From the IMG/VR virus record IMGVR_UViG_3300042401_001180: a stretch of 64,000 nt of DNA; one strand, written 5' to 3'. The notes below the pieces were generated by a model that ran no database searches, was not told the origin of the DNA, and saw only the letters and a list, made by a program, of their open reading frames with translations. A program made the translations under genes and the position numbers. The stretch comes from a virus (taxonomy: Duplodnaviria; Heunggongvirae; Uroviricota; Caudoviricetes). Of the stretch, positions 11,311-60,150 are shown in pieces (the first letter of the stretch is position 1; every line of letters starts with the position of its first letter).

Positions 11311-11348
11311 AATAAAAAAAGGTGACTCTATCAATGAGAGTCACCAAC
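11311..11348 (-). terminator. rho-independent terminator with the stop codon of the RNA ligase gene embedded in the stem
   Basis: GGTGACTCtatcaatGAGAGTCACC. On the minus strand it is followed by TTTTTTTA. Confidence 0.6.
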
Positions 11349-12464
11349 ATTATTTTTTTCACCGTATATTAAATAATCCGGATTTATCACTTTTGACACT
11401 TTTCTACGGTCACCAGTTATGGCTTTAACAACAACACCTTCGTGTGGTACTTTAGTTCCTTCTATATTGTTATTGAACACATATTTATCTTGTTCTTCTT
11501 TATTCCAATTACCCTTGTATAACAACTCAACTTGTGGTAATTGAAGACAATTAAAATGTACAGTTTCATTTATGTATGGTTGGTATACTCCATCAACTTC
11601 AACATCAAACCCCGCAAATTTAACATCAGTTAAACCGTACTCGTAGTTTTTTTGTATTCCTGCACCATATATCTCACCGTATATTACTACACCTTCACTC
11701 AAACCAAATGGTTCGTAAGTGTCTTTTACGTGAGCCCACAACTTACCTCTTATGTCATAAGTGTTTGCCACAGTTTTCCATACATCAGTATCGTAAAACC
11801 CTTGTGAGTCGGAACCCTTCTCTACGTTATGAGAACCATAAACATATTCAAATGCCGCCCATTGATTTCCAAAGAAGATTTTAACACGATCCCACAATGA
11901 TAGTTTTTTCTTTCTAACTATTCCGTAACGAGTATTTGTTCCGTGTAACTTACGAGTTATAACTACCTCATCTTCCTCATTGAACATATCAGGTACATTC
12001 TTTTGGTTAGGGAACTTGTAGTAAACTTTGAAGTTAGGGTTTTGGTGGTATTTTACTTTACGTCCACCAACACTTAACTGAACGGTTTTAACTGGTGGTT
12101 CGTATTTAGTTATACCAAGTATTCCCATCATGTCATCGCCTTCATTAACGTTTTTCTCCAATGATTTTGGTTCCAAGTATTTGAATGGTATTAACAAACA
12201 TTCAGAATAAACTCCACGAAGTTTTACGGTTCTAACCCTTTGTCCTTTACGAAGGTAGTTAGTTACTTCCATCAAGTCAGATAATCCTTGTGGTATCACA
12301 GCATCTGTAGTTGCAACAACAACCTTATCACCAACTTGGTATTCACCTTTTTTGGTTATGGCGTTCCATCCACCAACAGTAACTATTTCTATTTTATCTG
12401 CGTTTGGTATTTCAACCACTGAACCTATTTTTCCTACGTATGCTACGCTATTTTGATTTTCCAT
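11331..12464 (-). CDS. ATP-dependent RNA ligase (Rnl2/DraRnl-like) with N-terminal OB-like extension
   Basis: Nucleotidyltransferase motif I KLHGTN (KxHGxN as in T4 Rnl2). Confidence 0.6.
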   Translation of the reverse strand: MENQNSVAYVGKIGSVVEIPNADKIEIVTVGGWNAITKKGEYQVGDKVVVATTDAVIPQGLSDLMEVTNYLRKGQRVRTVKLRGVYSECLLIPFKYLEPKSLEKNVNEGDDMMGILGITKYEPPVKTVQLSVGGRKVKYHQNPNFKVYYKFPNQKNVPDMFNEEDEVVITRKLHGTNTRYGIVRKKKLSLWDRVKIFFGNQWAAFEYVYGSHNVEKGSDSQGFYDTDVWKTVANTYDIRGKLWAHVKDTYEPFGLSEGVVIYGEIYGAGIQKNYEYGLTDVKFAGFDVEVDGVYQPYINETVHFNCLQLPQVELLYKGNWNKEEQDKYVFNNNIEGTKVPHEGVVVKAITGDRRKVSKVINPDYLIYGEKNNVGDSH

Positions 12465-44517: not shown

Positions 44518-45150
44518 ATGAAAAATATAATCAAAAGAGTTTTAAAAGAATTTGTTGAATCAAAAGATATTACACTGCAAGAGATTTTTATAGATCCTTA
44601 CAATTTAATTTTATCTGAAGGTAAGTCTTTTGTAAAAATACCAAACGGTACCGAATCAATATTATTAAGAAAAATAGAATCATATTATAATTGGCCACCA
44701 ACAGTAAATAAAATATGGTGTTCCGATATTAAAGAAAAGTTTAAGGAAGGTATACCTATAAAGTCATGTTTAAAAAAGTTTGAATTAAGTTTAACAAATC
44801 ATTGGATTCAAAGATTGTTTAGAACAAGTGAGGACGATTATAAATTGTTAAACCCTCGAACAGGTAATGTTGGTAAGTTTTATAACCCTTCTATTGTTAA
44901 TCCTGATATTTTTGAGGGTATTGAGTTATTTTTTAACAGTAAAGATAAGATTAATGATTTTATTGATAACTCAAAAAACTGGATTCCTTTAAGTGATAAA
45001 TTCATAATTTTAAAGTCAAAATCCTATCAAACAATTATAGAATTAAAAAAAATGGATCAGGGAACATATAGGGTAATATTCATAACACAAATCAAAGGTG
45101 TTCCGTTTTTTGATACCCCTGAGTTGAAAAAATCAAGATTAATAAAATAA
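44518..45150 (+). CDS. hypothetical protein (210 aa) with MKNIIKRVLKEF N-terminal family motif
   Basis: ORF followed by a terminator. Confidence 0.5.
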   Translation: MKNIIKRVLKEFVESKDITLQEIFIDPYNLILSEGKSFVKIPNGTESILLRKIESYYNWPPTVNKIWCSDIKEKFKEGIPIKSCLKKFELSLTNHWIQRLFRTSEDDYKLLNPRTGNVGKFYNPSIVNPDIFEGIELFFNSKDKINDFIDNSKNWIPLSDKFIILKSKSYQTIIELKKMDQGTYRVIFITQIKGVPFFDTPELKKSRLIK

Positions 45151-45152
45151 AA

Positions 45153-45185
45153 AAGGTGGGTTACCCCACCTCAGTTACACTTATT
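45153..45185. terminator. rho-independent terminator (minus-strand sense strongest)
   Basis: aaaaaaGGTGGGttaCCCCACC. The minus strand is followed by TTTTTTATTTT. Confidence 0.6.
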
Positions 45186-45405
45186 ATCGTCAAATGTACG
45201 ACGCCTGTTGGGTACTTACAGGTGAACCGATGATTACCGTCTTTCGACGTATTCGGGGGTACATCCCTCCTTTTCAATCACCCCACTAACCCCTAAAGGT
45301 TGGTGGATGACTTTTTATATGGAAAATCATAAAACCATTATCTCAATTCGATACATCAAAGATATATGTATTATATATAAATTCCAAACTTTTTAGTAAA
45401 TATTT
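45186..45405 (-). ncRNA. ORF-free, GC-enriched structured region (candidate ncRNA, function unknown)
   Basis: Nested hairpins (CGTCaaatgtaCGACG, CCGAtgattaccgtctttcgacgtatTCGG, GGGatgtaCCC). No ORF. Sits between the terminator and tRNA-Met. Confidence 0.3.
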
Positions 45406-45409
45406 TTTG

Positions 45410-45483
45410 TGGTCCTTGTTGGAATCGAACCAACCACCTACTGATTATGAGTCAGTTGCTCTAACCGAATGAGCTAAAGGACC
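45410..45483 (-). tRNA. tRNA-Met(CAT) (or Ile-LAU; anticodon CAT)
   Basis: Acceptor GGTCCTT/AAGGACC, D GCTC/GAGC, anticodon stem ACTGA/TCAGT with loop CTCATAA, T stem GTTGG/CCAAC. Confidence 0.8.
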
Positions 45484-45644
45484 TAATTGGTGGAGATTTG
45501 ATGCCAACGTATGATCACCCCTACGTCTCGTTTCTGCGTATTCGGTACTCCACCTTTGTAAGTTCCTCTTACTTACACCCCCATTCGTGGACTTTCCGAC
45601 ATCCCAATGGTTTTTACCGTCCTATCGGAGTCAGGTAACCGCTG

Positions 45645-45722
45645 ATGTCAGGGTGGGATTCGAACCCACAATGAACAACCTTTTTACGGGACTTGGTACC
45701 ATACCTCATTACACTCCTGACA
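45645..45722 (-). tRNA. atypical tRNA-like element (perfect 7-bp acceptor and T-arm, no canonical anticodon arm)
   Basis: Acceptor TGTCAGG/CCTGACA and T-arm GTGGG-TTCGAAT-CCCAC. The 44-nt internal region does not give a 5-bp/7-nt anticodon hairpin. Confidence 0.35.
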
Positions 45723-45887
45723 AACTTCGACTCTTCAGCTTTCTACTCCCAGCACCGAGGAATTGTATATAACTTAGCCCATCTCACCGCTGTGTGGGAA
45801 CTGAAGTTTATCGTCTTTTTCTTATCGTAAAGATAAACAATATAAATAATATAAACAATAATGGTGTCATAATTTTTTAAGTTTTTG

Positions 45888-45987
45888 TAGTCAGGACAGG
45901 ATTCGAACCTGTATGGTAATTTTTTCAGTACCTCCACAACCCATGGATTTACGTGGTCTTTGCGTCTACCAATTTCGCCACCTGGCT
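45888..45987 (-). tRNA. atypical 100-nt tRNA-like element (Leu-like 5' half GCCAGGTGGCGAAATTGGTAGACGC)
   Basis: Acceptor AGCCAGG/CCTGACT (one mismatch), Leu-like D-arm, T-arm ACAGG-TTCGAAT-CCTGT, variable-arm-like hairpin GGTActgaaaaaatTACC. The anticodon region is non-canonical with a 15-nt loop. Confidence 0.35.
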
Positions 45988-46320
45988 ATGTTGAGGGTGA
46001 GAAGCCCTCTGTGTTGTTGACTAGTTTAACCTACCCTAAAGTCATTTTAGGTACAACCGTTTTCTGTTTACTATGATGGTAAAGCTTTCACCACAAGGGC
46101 CGGTCTTCGTCAGCTCAATATCTATCCCTTTCTCAAGGGAACAACACAATATTGTTGATAGTGTTGGGATACCCGTCTCGTCCCAATCTTAACTGCATCG
46201 TCTGAGTTTTCTCAGGGCCCTCGGCAGGGGGTGCTGAATTCCTGATCCACTCAGGATTGTCGACATCCGTTGAGATGGGGGAAAACCACTATCAATATTT
46301 TCAAAGAACTTTTTTCCTTA
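45988..46320 (-). ncRNA. GC-enriched ORF-free structured region (candidate ncRNA; tmRNA or other not confirmed)
   Basis: ~330 nt with local GC well above the genome background (e.g. cagggccctcggcagggggtgctgaattcctgatccactcaggattgtcgac). Immediately downstream of promoter repeat copy 1. No ORF. Confidence 0.35.
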
Positions 46321-46380
46321 TTTGTTTAACAAAGATATGTAATCTATTTCAATCTACCAAATCTTTTTTTACTTTTTTTT
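46321..46380 (-). promoter_or_regulatory. repeated strong promoter module, copy 1 (A-rich UP-like tract, -33 TTTG, -7 TATCTTTG)
   Basis: Minus strand aaaaaaaagtaaaaaaagaTTTGgtagattgaaatagattacaTATCTTTGtt. Near-identical to 47640..47700. Confidence 0.55.
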
Positions 46381-46546
46381 GTGGGACCCGCTCCCCACAC
46401 TGAACTTGTACTTCGTTCTATTAAGCGTTTTTTTCAGTTTTTTTAACCAATCAGTATTCGTGTTAGTTTTAACAAATTTAAATCTTCCTGATTCGCAAGT
46501 TCCTGATAAAACTTCTCTCATCATTCATTTGTATTAATTGTTTATT

Positions 46547-46619
46547 TGGTGGACACTGTGGGAATCGAACCCATACGATCTGATTGCAAATCAGTCGACC
46601 TGCCGTCGGCATCAGGCCC
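46547..46619 (-). tRNA. tRNA-like element with encoded CCA; anticodon loop contains TTGCAA (Cys-GCA or Ala-TGC); acceptor stem does not pair
   Basis: T-arm ATGGG-TTCGATT-CCCAC and a 3' end AGTGTCC-A-CCA. The 5' region GGGCCTG... is not complementary. Possible pseudo-tRNA or part of a larger RNA. Confidence 0.3.
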
Positions 46620-46624
46620 ATTTG

Positions 46625-46696
46625 TGCGGGTAGAATGAATCGAACACTCATCTCCACATTGGAAGTGTGGAGTAATAACCATTATACGATACCCGC
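46625..46696 (-). tRNA. tRNA-Gly(TCC)
   Basis: Acceptor GCGGGTA/TACCCGC, anticodon stem CCACA/TGTGG with loop CTTCCAA, T-arm GAGTG-TTCGATT-CATTC. Confidence 0.8.
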
Positions 46697-46702
46697 TTAT
46701 TG

Positions 46703-46795
46703 TACTGACGGTTGGATTCGAACCAACGTTTTAAACTTACCGCTACAGGCATAGATGATATAAGCATCCACTGGTACGTCAGCATAATCGTCAGT
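46703..46795 (-). tRNA. atypical 93-nt tRNA-like element (perfect acceptor ACTGACG/CGTCAGT and T-arm; candidate anticodon hairpin GGATG-CTTATAT-CATCT; 25-nt variable region)
   Basis: Folding gives anticodon TAT with one GU pair, an aberrant D-arm and a very long variable region. Confidence 0.35.
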
Positions 46796-46867
46796 CTTTC
46801 CTGACCGTCACCCCCAACCCACAGGTATGAACCCGTATCGTAGTAAAGCTTGGTTGGCTATTAGTTG

Positions 46868-46939
46868 TTGCAGGAGAAGGGTTCGAACCTCCGACCTCAA
46901 GGTTATGAGCCTTGCGAGCTACCACTGCTCTATCCTGCG
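46868..46939 (-). tRNA. tRNA-Met(CAT), initiator-like (C1xA72 mismatch)
   Basis: Acceptor CGCAGGA/TCCTGCA with a C1-A72 mismatch, D GAGC/GCTC, anticodon stem CAAGG/CCTTG with loop CTCATAA, T-arm GGAGG-TTCGAAC-CCTTC. Confidence 0.7.
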
Positions 46940-46960
46940 ATATACCATTTGTAGTTTAGT

Positions 46961-47000
46961 AGTTGACTCAAACTCTCGTTTCACCATCTTGAGTCAACAG
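46961..47000. other. perfect 10-bp inverted repeat hairpin (GTTGACTCAA-n17-TTGAGTCAAC)
   Basis: Read directly from the sequence. A second imperfect hairpin GGGAGTAGG...CCTACCCCC lies at 47075-47120. Confidence 0.5.
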
Positions 47001-47120
47001 GTTAATGCACTTTACGAGTTTCCCGTTTCTTACAACCACAATATTTTTATTTCAATGAACTTCTTCTGTCTTCACGGGAGTAGGACACCAACCTCTAACT
47101 TCCTACCCCCGTTCTCTGTC

Positions 47121-47165
47121 TTACAAAGATATGTAATCACTTTTGATTTGCCAAATTTTTATTGA
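47121..47165 (-). promoter_or_regulatory. repeated promoter module, copy 2 (-33 TTGgcaaatcaaaagtgattacaTATCTTTG)
   Basis: Shares the TATCTTTGTAA -7 region and an upstream A-tract with copies 1 and 3. Confidence 0.5.
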
Positions 47166-51406: not shown

Positions 51407-51820
51407 TTACAAAGATATGATTTTTTTTAAATTATCCCTTTCTTGATCTCGTTTTTTAATTGTTTCTCTTTTATCGTATAGTTTTTTACCTCTACCAATA
51501 ACAATAACCATTTTTATTAATCCCTTGTCGTTGGTGAATATTTTATATGGTACAATTGTTAATCCTTTATCCAATCGTTTACTGATGTCCTTTATTTCCT
51601 TTTTATTCAAAAGTATTTTAATGTCTCGTTTCTCGTCTGTTGAAGTTATGTTGATGTTTCTAACGTACATTTCATTATTTTTTAAATAACAATATGTATC
51701 GACAATGCTAACCTTATTATTTTTTATGGATTTAACCTCATTACCTACCAATACAACACCGCATGTGTATTTTTCAATAATCTCATACTCAAAACCTACC
51801 TTTTTGTTTGTTATTAACAT
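51407..51820 (-). CDS. smpB: SsrA-binding protein SmpB homolog
   Basis: Residue pattern NKKVGFEYEIIEKYTCGVVLVGNEVKSIK...SIVDTYCYL...RKLLL..KEI..L.....GLTIVPYKIF.....IKMVIVIGRGKKLYDKRETIKKRDQERD matches the conserved SmpB fold signature (EVKS, GKKxxDKR, basic tail). Confidence 0.7.
   Translation of the reverse strand: MLITNKKVGFEYEIIEKYTCGVVLVGNEVKSIKNNKVSIVDTYCYLKNNEMYVRNINITSTDEKRDIKILLNKKEIKDISKRLDKGLTIVPYKIFTNDKGLIKMVIVIGRGKKLYDKRETIKKRDQERDNLKKIISL
51408..51417 (-). promoter_or_regulatory. Bacteroidetes-type -7 box
   Basis: Minus strand ATATCTTTGT. Confidence 0.35.
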
Positions 51821-51923: not shown

Positions 51924-51995
51924 GAGCTCAGGGAGGGATTTGAACCCACATACCAGGCGTTTGCAGTGCCGGACCTTACCAATCGGACACCTGAG
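51924..51995 (-). tRNA. tRNA-Cys(GCA)-like (short anticodon stem)
   Basis: Perfect acceptor GCTCAGG/CCTGAGC and a T-arm TTCAAAT loop. Loop CTGCAAA is closed by a 3-bp GGC/GCC stem. Confidence 0.45.
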
Positions 51996-52001
51996 CATAT
52001 A

Positions 52002-53715: not shown

Positions 53716-53801
53716 AGGAAGACATTGGAATCGAACCAAATACCCTTACGGGTACATCTCGCTTAGCAGGCGGACCCTATCGCCATCAAGGTTTATCTTC
53801 C
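53716..53801 (-). tRNA. tRNA-Ser(GCT)
   Basis: Acceptor GGAAGAT/GTCTTCC, loop CTGCTAA, long variable arm TACCCgtaaGGGTA. Confidence 0.7.
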
Positions 53802-59159: not shown

Positions 59160-60150
59160 AAACCTAAAAATAAAAACCTGAGATTACAGTTTTTGTTGAG
59201 AACCTTTCGAGTCATTATTGTTTCTACTCTTATCCACCATCTTTTGAATGGTATTTCTCAGTGACGATTATTTAGGTGAATCACTCCTTGAGGTACTAGT
59301 TACTCTCTCATTACTCAACTCTCTTCGAGACTGCCGTCCCAACTCTTCCTTGCGGGAATAGAGGTTTTTGGTAAGAATATAGGTCAACTTGCGGTCTTCC
59401 TATGCAATGAACAGCTCATTACTATGTAGTCACCTTTCACTATTACCTGACGAACACTTTTGCTTTTTAGTTTTAGTTTTACCTTTTCCATAAAAGTTTT
59501 TGTGTTGTGGATTGATAGAAGTAGTGGTCCGTCACGGGCTTCGTTATCTTTTGAACAACGAAATACTCAACTACTCCTTGAAATGTCCCCATCTCAATAT
59601 TTCAAGACTACTTCGAGATTTAACCTTTGGTAAGGTTCAATCAAGGTTAGTAACAACACCACTTGTACACCAACATACCTTTCGGTTTTAAGTATCCTAT
59701 CATAATGGAACACGCAATAATAAAATCGGATAATCTTATTTTTTGCAATACCCCTACGAGTTATTCCTTTTGGTGTTCCCACCTCAAACTGACAACCCAC
59801 ATTGCCAATTCATCTAACCACTTTCCCTACAGCGTTGCCCTCGGTACTAAAGATTAAACGGTATCCCGCTTGTGTACTCGATCTCGACAAATCCGAAGAC
59901 TCACCAAGACGCAAATCAGTTACACTTCTGACTCACTTTATCCTACTTTCGTAGTTTATTTTAATGGACCATACACGGCCCAATGACTTAATTTAGTTTC
60001 ACACATAAAGAAAGGGAGGTGTTAAGTCTCATCTTTTAATTGTGACGACCGTTTCAGTCGGATTTAGATTTTCAAAGAACGTTTCAGGACTTTTCCTGAT
60101 TTGTTTTACAAATTTAAGTCTTTTTTTTCATTAAGACAAGTGTTTGTGAA
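59160..60150. ncRNA. ~1-kb ORF-free, GC-richer region: candidate large structured RNA / intron-like / origin element (unassigned)
   Basis: The track has only short spurious ORFs here. Composition is clearly less AT-rich than the flanks (e.g. gactgccgtcccaactcttccttgcggg). Bounded by a terminator upstream and a T-rich tract downstream. Confidence 0.3.

Follow-up and report, generated by a model that had tools for sequence, protein, structure and literature searches.

Compact-core tRNAs, such as the tRNAPyl of M. alvus and the mitochondrial tRNASer(UCN), combine a small D-loop, a long anticodon stem with an unpaired A and a variable loop of 2-3 nt (PMC7609411). Allo-tRNAs, which have been found in metagenomes and phages, have 8/4 or 9/3 acceptor/T branches, some of them with a bulge (PMC5389517), and for two RNAs of phage T4, C and D, no function has yet been established (PMC9697503). 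Here we analyze a cluster of four tRNA-like elements, named E1 to E4, in a 64,000-nucleotide (64-kb) stretch of the IMG/VR virus record IMGVR_UViG_3300042401_001180 (Caudoviricetes), hereafter called the window. Our preferred reading, to which we give a fair measure of probability, is that E3 and E4 decode with reduced cores, E3 resembling a tRNA-Ala(UGC) gene and E4 a tRNA-Ile(UAU) gene, and that E1 and E2 are non-decoding tRNA-shaped modules. The transcription, processing, charging and ribosomal use of the elements discussed below are inferred from the sequences and their relatives.

A first-pass annotation of the window had proposed four elements with acceptor stems and T-arms, and all four were found, each on the minus strand. 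The acceptor strands pair at seven of seven positions in E1 and in E4 (including G1.U72) and at six of seven in E2, with T-loops of the UUCRANY type; in E3 the 7-bp acceptor carries a single bulged U and the T-stem is 4 bp long. Across the families, acceptor and T-stems covary. Among the four, only E2 has a canonical D-arm (positions 10-25), and a 7-nt anticodon loop with U33 and a purine at position 37 is present in E3 and E4 and absent from E1 and E2. With the Rfam tRNA model (RF00005, gathering threshold 29 bits), E2 scored 34.3 bits in a match that skips 41 nt at the position of the anticodon arm, E1 and E3 scored 21.0 and 18.6 bits, and E4 gave no match at E <= 10. ARAGORN called E4 alone among the four, as a 94-nt 'Ile(tat)'. 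As the annotation had anticipated, then, covariance models do not fold the elements as ordinary tRNAs. A strict scan of both strands of the window, which required a 5-bp T-stem with the T-loop consensus and a perfect 7-bp acceptor, recovered only the known tRNAs and E1, and therefore the elements are not background. Relaxed Rfam searches of the region and of the whole window returned only tRNA and GOLLD.

We retrieved 85 related loci via the flanking proteins (IMG/VR contigs of up to ~320 kb), and pattern scans added more. All four families recur in related IMG/VR phage contigs, with identities of 91-100% for E3 and 93-98% for E4, compared to just 62-89% for the flanking protein. The spacers between the tRNA-like elements are likewise kept in relatives (85-97% identity; 75-97% conservation for modules A-E taken together), the order of the modules varies, and the region is highly mosaic. 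About one in five of the tRNA-shaped genes in the 85 loci is non-canonical, and ARAGORN missed about one in five. INPHARED, which covers cultured and deposited phages, contained no close relative of the region and no match for the E1, E2 and E3 queries; E4 was matched solely in the uncultured 642-kb phage LR756502.

E3 resembles a tRNA-Ala(UGC) gene with a compact core. Its 5' strand had been described as unpaired with the 3' acceptor strand. This proved wrong, as the two strands pair once one U is bulged, giving 4 bp, the bulged U and 3 bp (GGGC-CUG with CAG-U-GUCC), with a G3:U70 pair. In support of this, one relative (L098) carries a compensatory change from U6:A to A6:U in the acceptor that is compatible with the bulged register alone. 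The acceptor is followed by a mini D hairpin (UGCC-GAC-GGCA; 4 bp closing a loop of 3 nt). The anticodon stem that comes next has 7 bp, an A bulged out of its 3' side and the loop UUUGCAA, and leads on to a variable loop of 2 nt, the T-arm and A73. The encoded CCA noted in the first-pass annotation is indeed present at the 3' end; it is not conserved in relatives. Among eight distinct variants, 99.4% of the cells are paired and six pairs show compensatory changes, five of them in the anticodon stem (of its seven pairs) and one in the acceptor. The loop follows the consensus YUUGCAN, in which U33, the UGC anticodon and A37 are invariant, and position 38 is A, C or G (U in locus L003).

The same architecture, built from different helix sequences, was found in loci L161 and L003 and in phage LR756502. 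In each, the D hairpin has 4 bp and a loop of 3-4 nt, the anticodon stem spans 6-7 bp, the variable loop has 2-3 nt, and G3:U70 and A73 are present. The L161 copy is a positional orthologue of E3, with the same small open reading frame (ORF) downstream. In LR756502, the E3-type gene (positions 1583-1657 of locus L341, LR756502.1 389485-392551) lies 8 nt from an E4-type gene (1495-1574), so that, to judge from these sequences, the odd E4/E3 pair is kept as a unit across distant large phages.

E4 departs from the cloverleaf in another way. The first-pass annotation extended it to position 46795, which turned out to be too far: it starts with GCUGACG at 46783, where conservation in relatives begins, and the ACUGACG upstream of it forms the 3' arm of a spacer hairpin (module B). 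The acceptor (GCUGACG/CGUCAGU) is followed by a UAC linker and a 9-bp anticodon arm, in which a 3-nt bulge of the 3' side separates the first 3 bp from the next 6; this arm closes the loop CUUAUAU. An 18-nt single strand, UAGCGGUAAGUUUAAAAC (consensus UAGNGG(U)AAGUUKAAAC), then leads from the 3' side of the anticodon arm to the T-arm (GUUGG-UUCGAAU-CCAAC) and A73. The anticodon arm is standard in sequence, and E4 departs from the norm in lacking a D-arm and in the 25 nt that come behind the anticodon arm. The alignment comprises 21 distinct variants from 38 contigs; 99.3% of its cells are paired, its covariation was reached by none of 500 shuffles, RNAalifold and our manual proposal agree on the fold, and the loop CUUAUAU is invariant. 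The E4-type gene of LR756502 has an identical layout, although its acceptor stem is nearly all replaced and its anticodon stem partly so. It keeps positions 32-37 of the loop (CUUAUA), differing only at position 38 (CUUAUAA), and retains the strand UAGCGGU..AAAAC. With this copy included, 11 of the 21 pairs show compensatory changes and 99.1% of the cells are paired.

The slot of E4 is occupied in two relatives (L037 and L041) by a canonical tRNA-Ile(UAU) gene with the same anticodon arm, GGACGCUUAUAUCGUC. Relative to that gene, E4 has lost the D-arm, of 17 nt, and has 20 additional nt behind the anticodon arm. The added strand opens with A-G-N-G-G-U-A, which matches the D-loop consensus A14-R15-N-G18-G19-N-A21, and we infer from this match that the function of the D-loop has been relocated to a position 3' of the anticodon arm. 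The first-pass suggestion of tRNAs with small insertions holds in spirit for E3 and E4 insofar as both are non-canonical, and fails in that the D region has been rebuilt, rather than a small segment inserted.

E1 combines the acceptor UGUCAGG/CCUGACA and the T-arm GUGGG-UUCGAAU-CCCAC with an interior that contains, in order, the conserved linker AGUGUAAUGA, a mini D-like hairpin (GGUA-UGG-UACC), a short variable hairpin (CC-CGUAAAAA-GG) and the conserved strand GGUUGUUCAUU before the T-arm. Its family comprises 37 distinct variants in length classes of 75-78, 83-84 and 115-116 nt. In the family consensus, the single strand AGYGUAA.. is conserved, a 4-bp hairpin has GG in its 3-4-nt loop in every variant, and another conserved strand, GGUUGCUCAUU, precedes the T-arm; in the RNAalifold consensus 9 of 18 pairs have compensatory changes, among them four of the seven acceptor pairs and also pairs of the mini-hairpin. 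The variable arm measures 2-3 bp in the E1 of the window and ~45 nt in the long class. Since in the medium class it is a hairpin of 6-7 bp with a GUURA loop, this is not an anticodon loop. Two other helices considered for E1, AAUGAG/CUCAUU and AGUG/CAUU, were rejected because the variants give them no support.

E2 belongs to a much larger and more variable family. As the first-pass annotation described, it has a Leu-like 5' half and a 15-nt loop at the site of the anticodon. Its acceptor (AGCCAGG/CCUGACU) contains a C3.A70 mismatch, and the Leu-type D-arm GGCGAAAUUGGUAGACGC is followed by a unique 49-nt interior, with a CCAC/GUGG helix (15-nt loop) and a GGUA/UACC helix (10-nt loop), and by the T-arm ACAGG-UUCGAAU-CCUGU. 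The 3' 23-mer of E2 occurs in at least 120 viral stretches, with seven copies in one 5-kb stretch. We collected at least 172 distinct members of 65-182 nt, and ARAGORN was silent on 133 of the 172. They share the profile AGUCAGG-U-GGCGGAAUUGGUAGACGC ... UACAGGUUCGAAUCCUGUCCUGACU-A, whose acceptor-stem constancy is partly built into a sample that was fished by the 3' end. U8, A14, A15, G18G19, U48 and the T-loop are conserved and A73 is present in 156 of 172 members, and the information content between the D-arm and the T-arm is close to zero. The shortest members, of 65-72 nt, are too small to accommodate an anticodon arm.

The E2 interiors are A-rich and weakly structured (mean z = -0.6, 4% below -2), and 128 of 166 are singletons; a few small subfamilies retain hairpins through compensatory changes. 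Given this mean z and the mostly singleton interiors, we rejected the idea of a structured cargo. An antisense role was also rejected, as no sequence complementary to the 15-nt loop or its flanks occurs elsewhere in the window; a 14-nt match at ~55,500 lies inside an ORF and is due to chance. Some interiors (L207, L218, L338 and others) contain a further T-arm-like hairpin of their own, NNNNGUUCGAWUCNNNN, and so form 'double T-arm' RNAs. Among 185,579 bacterial and archaeal species genomes, the E2 3' end was found only in 23 low-GC contig stretches of metagenome-assembled genomes, several of which carry phage-like tRNA arrays, and the E2 frame is not a copy of the tRNA-Leu of any isolate in this set. 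In short, where the first-pass annotation had looked to homologues for conservation of the unusual parts, this was found for the odd parts of E3 and E4; the arm of E1 varies in length, and E2 conserves its frame and not its interior.

For bacterial leucyl-tRNA synthetase (LeuRS), A73 and the core tertiary pairs are reported to be critical, and removing the entire anticodon stem-loop cost just 2.5-fold in affinity (PMC2377443). The E2 family has the determinants A73, U8-A14, G18-U55, G19-C56 and R15-Y48. Because the frame keeps what LeuRS needs and varies in the dispensable anticodon arm, leucylation is plausible, and E2 may be chargeable with leucine though non-decoding.

What E1 and E2 could do is suggested by the spacers. 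Six GC-rich, non-coding modules, A to F, lie between the genes of the region; A-E are conserved and shuffled between genomes, module F has no homologue in the fetched loci, and none of the six matches Rfam. Module B is 94-97% identical in at least nine loci and is followed by an E4-type gene, a canonical Ile(UAU) gene, an Asp-like element or an E1-type element, its hairpin (GUCAG-GAAAGA-CUGAC) being present regardless of which tRNA follows. Two further features of module B are a helix that resembles an acceptor (CCAACC/GGUUGG) and a hairpin that resembles a T-arm. Module D, a conserved RNA of the hairpin type, lies directly against the 5' end of E1, and in all 14 distinct contexts among the relatives it is directly followed by an E1-family element. 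Module C extends up to E2. Non-decoding tRNA shapes thus adjoin another RNA at the D-E1 and C-E2 junctions, and module B precedes E4-type genes. Modules E and F have a CCGAAUACG..GAAA motif in common, and module F has a terminator-like hairpin at its end.

A conserved spacer may be followed directly by a canonical tRNA or by a tRNA-like element, and because the spacers end at the 5' ends of tRNA-shaped genes of both kinds, a handle model fits. E1 and E2 retain the acceptor, the T-arm and a GG-containing D-element, and would in this way keep the tRNA 'elbow', by which RNase P, the 3'-end trimming activities and the CCA-adding enzyme could recognize them. They would mark cut sites in the transcript, freeing the spacer RNAs and the neighbouring tRNAs, and could supply a stable frame for a variable insert. 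The first-pass notion of tRNA-like handles or decoys accordingly survives in spirit for E1 and E2, which have no anticodon loop and keep acceptor, T-arm and elbow.

Decoding by E3 and E4 is suggested by their anticodon loops, which have the conservation pattern of genuine anticodon loops, and by architectures that combine a minimal D region, an extended anticodon stem and an anticodon loop, as in D-armless and compact-core tRNAs (a likeness of structural type, not of lineage). E3 and E4 apart, the window contains no Ala tRNA and no AUA-reading tRNA; AUA makes up 33% of Ile codons and GCA 49% of Ala codons. In the fetched IMG/VR loci, which are partial loci of 1-15 kb, E4-type genes were present in 48 and canonical Ile(UAU) genes in 23, E3-type genes in 43 and canonical Ala(UGC) genes in 11, and no locus had both forms of either. 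E3 would read GCA/GCN as a tRNA-Ala(UGC), carrying the determinants G3:U70 and A73 of alanyl-tRNA synthetase. E4 would read AUA as a tRNA-Ile(UAU), its 3-bp helix lengthening the anticodon arm and its AGNGGUA segment, 3' of that arm, possibly still contacting the T-loop.

Several points weigh against our interpretation, beginning with the partial extent of the loci behind these counts. Phage LR756502 carries, within ~1.3 kb of the odd copies, a canonical tRNA-Ile(UAU) gene (315-387 of L341) and a canonical tRNA-Ala(UGC) gene (1669-1742). Since canonical and odd genes coexist there, the odd forms are not simply replacements, and E3- and E4-type RNAs may have an added or a non-decoding role. No use of D-armless tRNAs by bacterial ribosomes or EF-Tu is known to us. 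The discriminator base of E1 varies in its family, which argues against charging of E1. The weak structure of the E2 interiors suits neutral filler as well as cargo. Finally, the E2 copy of the window, with its acceptor mismatch, folds no better than shuffled sequences (z = +0.55), and on both grounds it may be a weakened member of the family.

The principal competing explanation, which we consider rather improbable, is that the role of E1 and E2, and perhaps also that of E3 and E4, lies outside translation, in the mimicry of tRNAs. They could be decoys or sponges, chargeable or not, that attract host factors recognizing the acceptor/T/D body of tRNAs (tRNA-targeting defence nucleases or toxins, synthetases, modification enzymes), or they could be amino-acid donors to non-ribosomal transferases. 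This explanation is kept alive by the hyperdiversity of E2, whose interior is free to vary around the full set of LeuRS determinants and could be either irrelevant or specific bait, and by the coexistence of odd and canonical Ile and Ala genes in LR756502. The proportion of non-canonical genes in the related loci also speaks for it, and a phage RNA ligase of the tRNA-repair kind and an SmpB protein, both encoded in the window, suggest conflict over the translation apparatus. However, the anticodon loops of E3 and E4 show the selection that decoding would impose, the variable discriminator of E1 fits mimicry poorly, and an incomplete Pfam scan of 26 window ORFs revealed no aminoacyl-tRNA transferase or other aminoacyl-tRNA-using enzyme, its only hits being SmpB, the RNA ligase and an RNase H-like protein.

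Phage tRNA arrays often hold pseudo-tRNAs, and the elements could be functionless tRNA genes decaying after duplication or recombination in the array, as the mosaic region, the absence of information in the E2 interiors and the acceptor mismatch and poor fold of the window E2 might suggest. We regard this as very unlikely: E3 and E4 are far better conserved than the flanking protein, every helix shows compensatory changes, the same odd architectures are found in a distant 642-kb phage, and the E2 frame is maintained over more than 170 different interiors. The first-pass mention of pseudo-tRNAs is at odds with these data. No greater credit goes to tRNA genes with short introns or intervening sequences whose excision would restore the cloverleaf. 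E1 and E2 homologues do vary by insertions of 5-130 nt at one position, and an RNA ligase is available, but E4 would lack a D-arm even after removal of its extra 25 nt, the shortest E2 members leave no space for the arm to be restored, E1 and E2 have no conserved 7-nt U33 loop, and Rfam detected no group I or group II intron at E <= 10. In addition, bacteria have, as far as we know, no archaeal-type splicing endonuclease. The idea that E3, with or without its neighbours, is part of a two-piece (permuted) transfer-messenger RNA (tmRNA) working with the phage SmpB is effectively refuted. G3:U70, A73, the encoded CCA and the reduced D region do recall the tRNA-like domain of tmRNA, and the window encodes SmpB and contains no tmRNA (no ARAGORN or Rfam match, even at E <= 5). 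Yet the anticodon arm of E3 is complete and its UGC loop invariant, its encoded CCA is not conserved in relatives, and locus L037 carries E3 together with a separate, complete one-piece tmRNA (Rfam, 118 bits). The pieces of permuted tmRNA suggested by the first-pass annotation are not supported. The tmRNA that serves the phage SmpB is presumably located elsewhere in its genome. An ARAGORN tmRNA call in L161 was a false positive that spans two real tRNAs and has no Rfam support.

The source of the window is a large freshwater phage with a GC content of ~28-30%, whose host is probably a member of the Bacteroidota. The region from 45150 to 47130 stands out as an island of 40-48% GC without any long ORF, and all 21 ARAGORN tRNAs of the window, like E1-E4, are on the minus strand (Table 1). 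The motif TACATATCTTTG occurs seven times in the window, compared to about one expected occurrence, six of the copies being on the minus strand. It resembles the -7 promoter box of Bacteroidota, TAnnTTTG, and is probably a promoter element of this phage. The lack of long ORFs, the promoter-like copies and the terminator-like hairpin suggest one or two transcription units made solely of RNA genes, and the cluster would then be part of a ~2-kb promoter-to-terminator array of RNA genes.

Table 1. Positions of the tRNA-like elements and of other features in the window. The four elements are given in their direction of reading.
Feature	Position	Strand	Remarks
E1 (short-arm class)	45722->45645	-	78 nt; 7-bp acceptor, T-arm, discriminator U
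E2	45987->45888	-	100 nt; discriminator A
E3	46619->46547	-	70 nt + encoded CCA; anticodon 46588-46586
E4	46783->46703	-	81 nt; anticodon 46762-46760
tRNA-Met(CAU), canonical	46867..46939	-	ARAGORN; Rfam 64.4 bits
tRNA-Gly(UCC), canonical, between E4 and E3	46624..46696	-	ARAGORN; Rfam 63.2 bits
tRNA-Met(CAU), canonical	45409..45483	-	ARAGORN; Rfam 72.3 bits
Module A	46940-47110	-	spacer
Module B	46784-46866	-	spacer
Module C	45988-46290	-	spacer
Module D	45723-45810	-	spacer
Module E	45484-45644	-	spacer
Module F	45153-45350	-	spacer
Promoter-like motif UACAUAUCUUUG	47124..47135; second copy 46330-46341	-	first copy at the upstream edge of the island; putative promoter
TACATATCTTTG copies	14501, 16212, 34330, 44311, 46330, 47124	-	
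TACATATCTTTG copy	55396	+	
Intrinsic-terminator-like hairpin + U-run	45153..45172	-	downstream edge of the island
51-amino-acid ORF	46369-46524	-	directly after E3; kept in L006, L013, L161
20-codon mini-ORF MTPLLFILFILFIFTIRKRR	45808-45870	-	between E2 and module D
SmpB gene	51407-51820	-	Pfam 133 bits
RNA ligase gene	11331-12464	-	PHA02142 OB-fold and RNA_ligase domains
GOLLD RNA	59175-59578	-	Rfam RF02032, 323 bits
Cys(GCA)-like tRNA gene	51925-51996	-	missed by ARAGORN; Rfam 43.9 bits
Type-II Ser(GCU)-like tRNA gene	53716-53801	-	missed by ARAGORN; Rfam tRNA-Sec only, 34.9 bits, below threshold

Two small ORFs accompany the cluster. The 51-amino-acid ORF after E3 had no convincing family match. 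The mini-ORF MTPLLFILFILFIFTIRKRR is missing from some relatives and conserved, apart from hydrophobic substitutions, in several others; its possible products are a small membrane peptide, a toxin or a Leu/Ile/Phe-rich leader peptide. The GOLLD RNA lies 12 kb from the cluster, near a larger tRNA array at 51.8-55.2 kb, and in L037 GOLLD adjoins the tmRNA. The RNA ligase is of the kind used by phages for the repair of cleaved tRNAs, and suggests conflict with host tRNA nucleases.

Rfam 15 contains no family for E1-E4, and our search of the literature on D-armless phage tRNAs and hypervariable tRNA-framed RNAs found no description of either. Standard finders under-call the tRNA-shaped genes of phages, as the ARAGORN result in the related loci shows, and the E2 family is a large class of phage RNA for which we found no description. 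Should E3 and E4 decode, they would be, to our knowledge, the first tRNAs outside organelles and methanogens that work without a normal D-arm in bacterial-type translation. This would imply looser structural demands on the part of bacterial EF-Tu, ribosomes, RNase P and synthetases, and would provide compact, possibly orthogonal tRNA bodies for engineering. A more speculative proposal, which we hold to be doubtful, is that large Bacteroidota-type phages maintain parallel tRNA bodies: compact or D-permuted Ile-UAU and Ala-UGC forms that would work on a bacterial ribosome and would have been retained for evading tRNA-targeting defences of the host or a phage's own attack on host tRNAs, and a Leu-chargeable, anticodon-less scaffold with hundreds of decoy, sponge or guide inserts.

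In the comparison with known systems, E3 is closest to tRNAPyl and mt-tRNASer(UCN), with which it shares the small D-loop, the long anticodon stem interrupted by an A and the short variable loop. E4, which has no D-arm and an extended anticodon arm, is closest to the type III mitochondrial tRNAs, such as mt-tRNASer(AGY). Unlike these mitochondrial and methanogen tRNAs, however, E3 and E4 are phage genes, presumably made for a bacterial ribosome and EF-Tu. Both retain canonical T-loops, unlike the mitochondrial comparators, and the connector of E4 that contains AGNGGUA lies 3' of the anticodon arm, whereas the mitochondrial D-replacement loop lies 5' of it. Like the allo-tRNAs, E3 departs from the canonical cloverleaf, in its case with a 7-bp bulged acceptor and a 4-bp T-stem; its branch, however, totals 11 bp rather than 12, its chief deviation is in the D/anticodon region, and its identity is Ala, not Ser, His, Sec or Cys. 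With the tRNA-like domain of tmRNA, E3 shares G3:U70, A73 and a reduced D region, in a window that also encodes SmpB, but it has an anticodon arm and no mRNA-like domain, and its relatives have a separate tmRNA.

For E1 and E2, tRNA-like handles are provided by the MALAT1 mascRNA, the MHV68 vtRNA-miRNA (TMER) transcripts, mitochondrial tRNA punctuation and engineered tRNA scaffolds. As in those systems, where the tRNA-processing enzymes thereby set the RNA ends, a non-decoding tRNA shape adjoins another RNA, here the spacers that abut the 5' ends of E1, E2 and also E4. Those handles are eukaryotic, viral-eukaryotic or synthetic, whereas the processing of E1 and E2 is a prediction, and E2 keeps a full D-arm and core, beyond the needs of RNase P. 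The closest phage parallel is given by T4 RNAs C and D (species 1 and 2; rnaC and rnaD), elongated stable RNAs of 139 and 119 nt that, like E1 and E2, lie within a phage tRNA cluster. RNA C has a canonical T-arm, CCGGGUUCGAAUCCCGG, near its end, followed by an acceptor-like strand. Neither T4 RNA resembles E1 or E2 in sequence, RNA D has no obvious T-arm, and both are single copies, in contrast to the constant frame with many interiors seen in E2. Taken together, E2 and T4 RNAs C and D may help to explain the non-tRNA stable RNAs of phage tRNA clusters, and phages seem to keep tRNA body plans that were described earlier mainly in mitochondria, alongside very diverse tRNA-framed RNAs.

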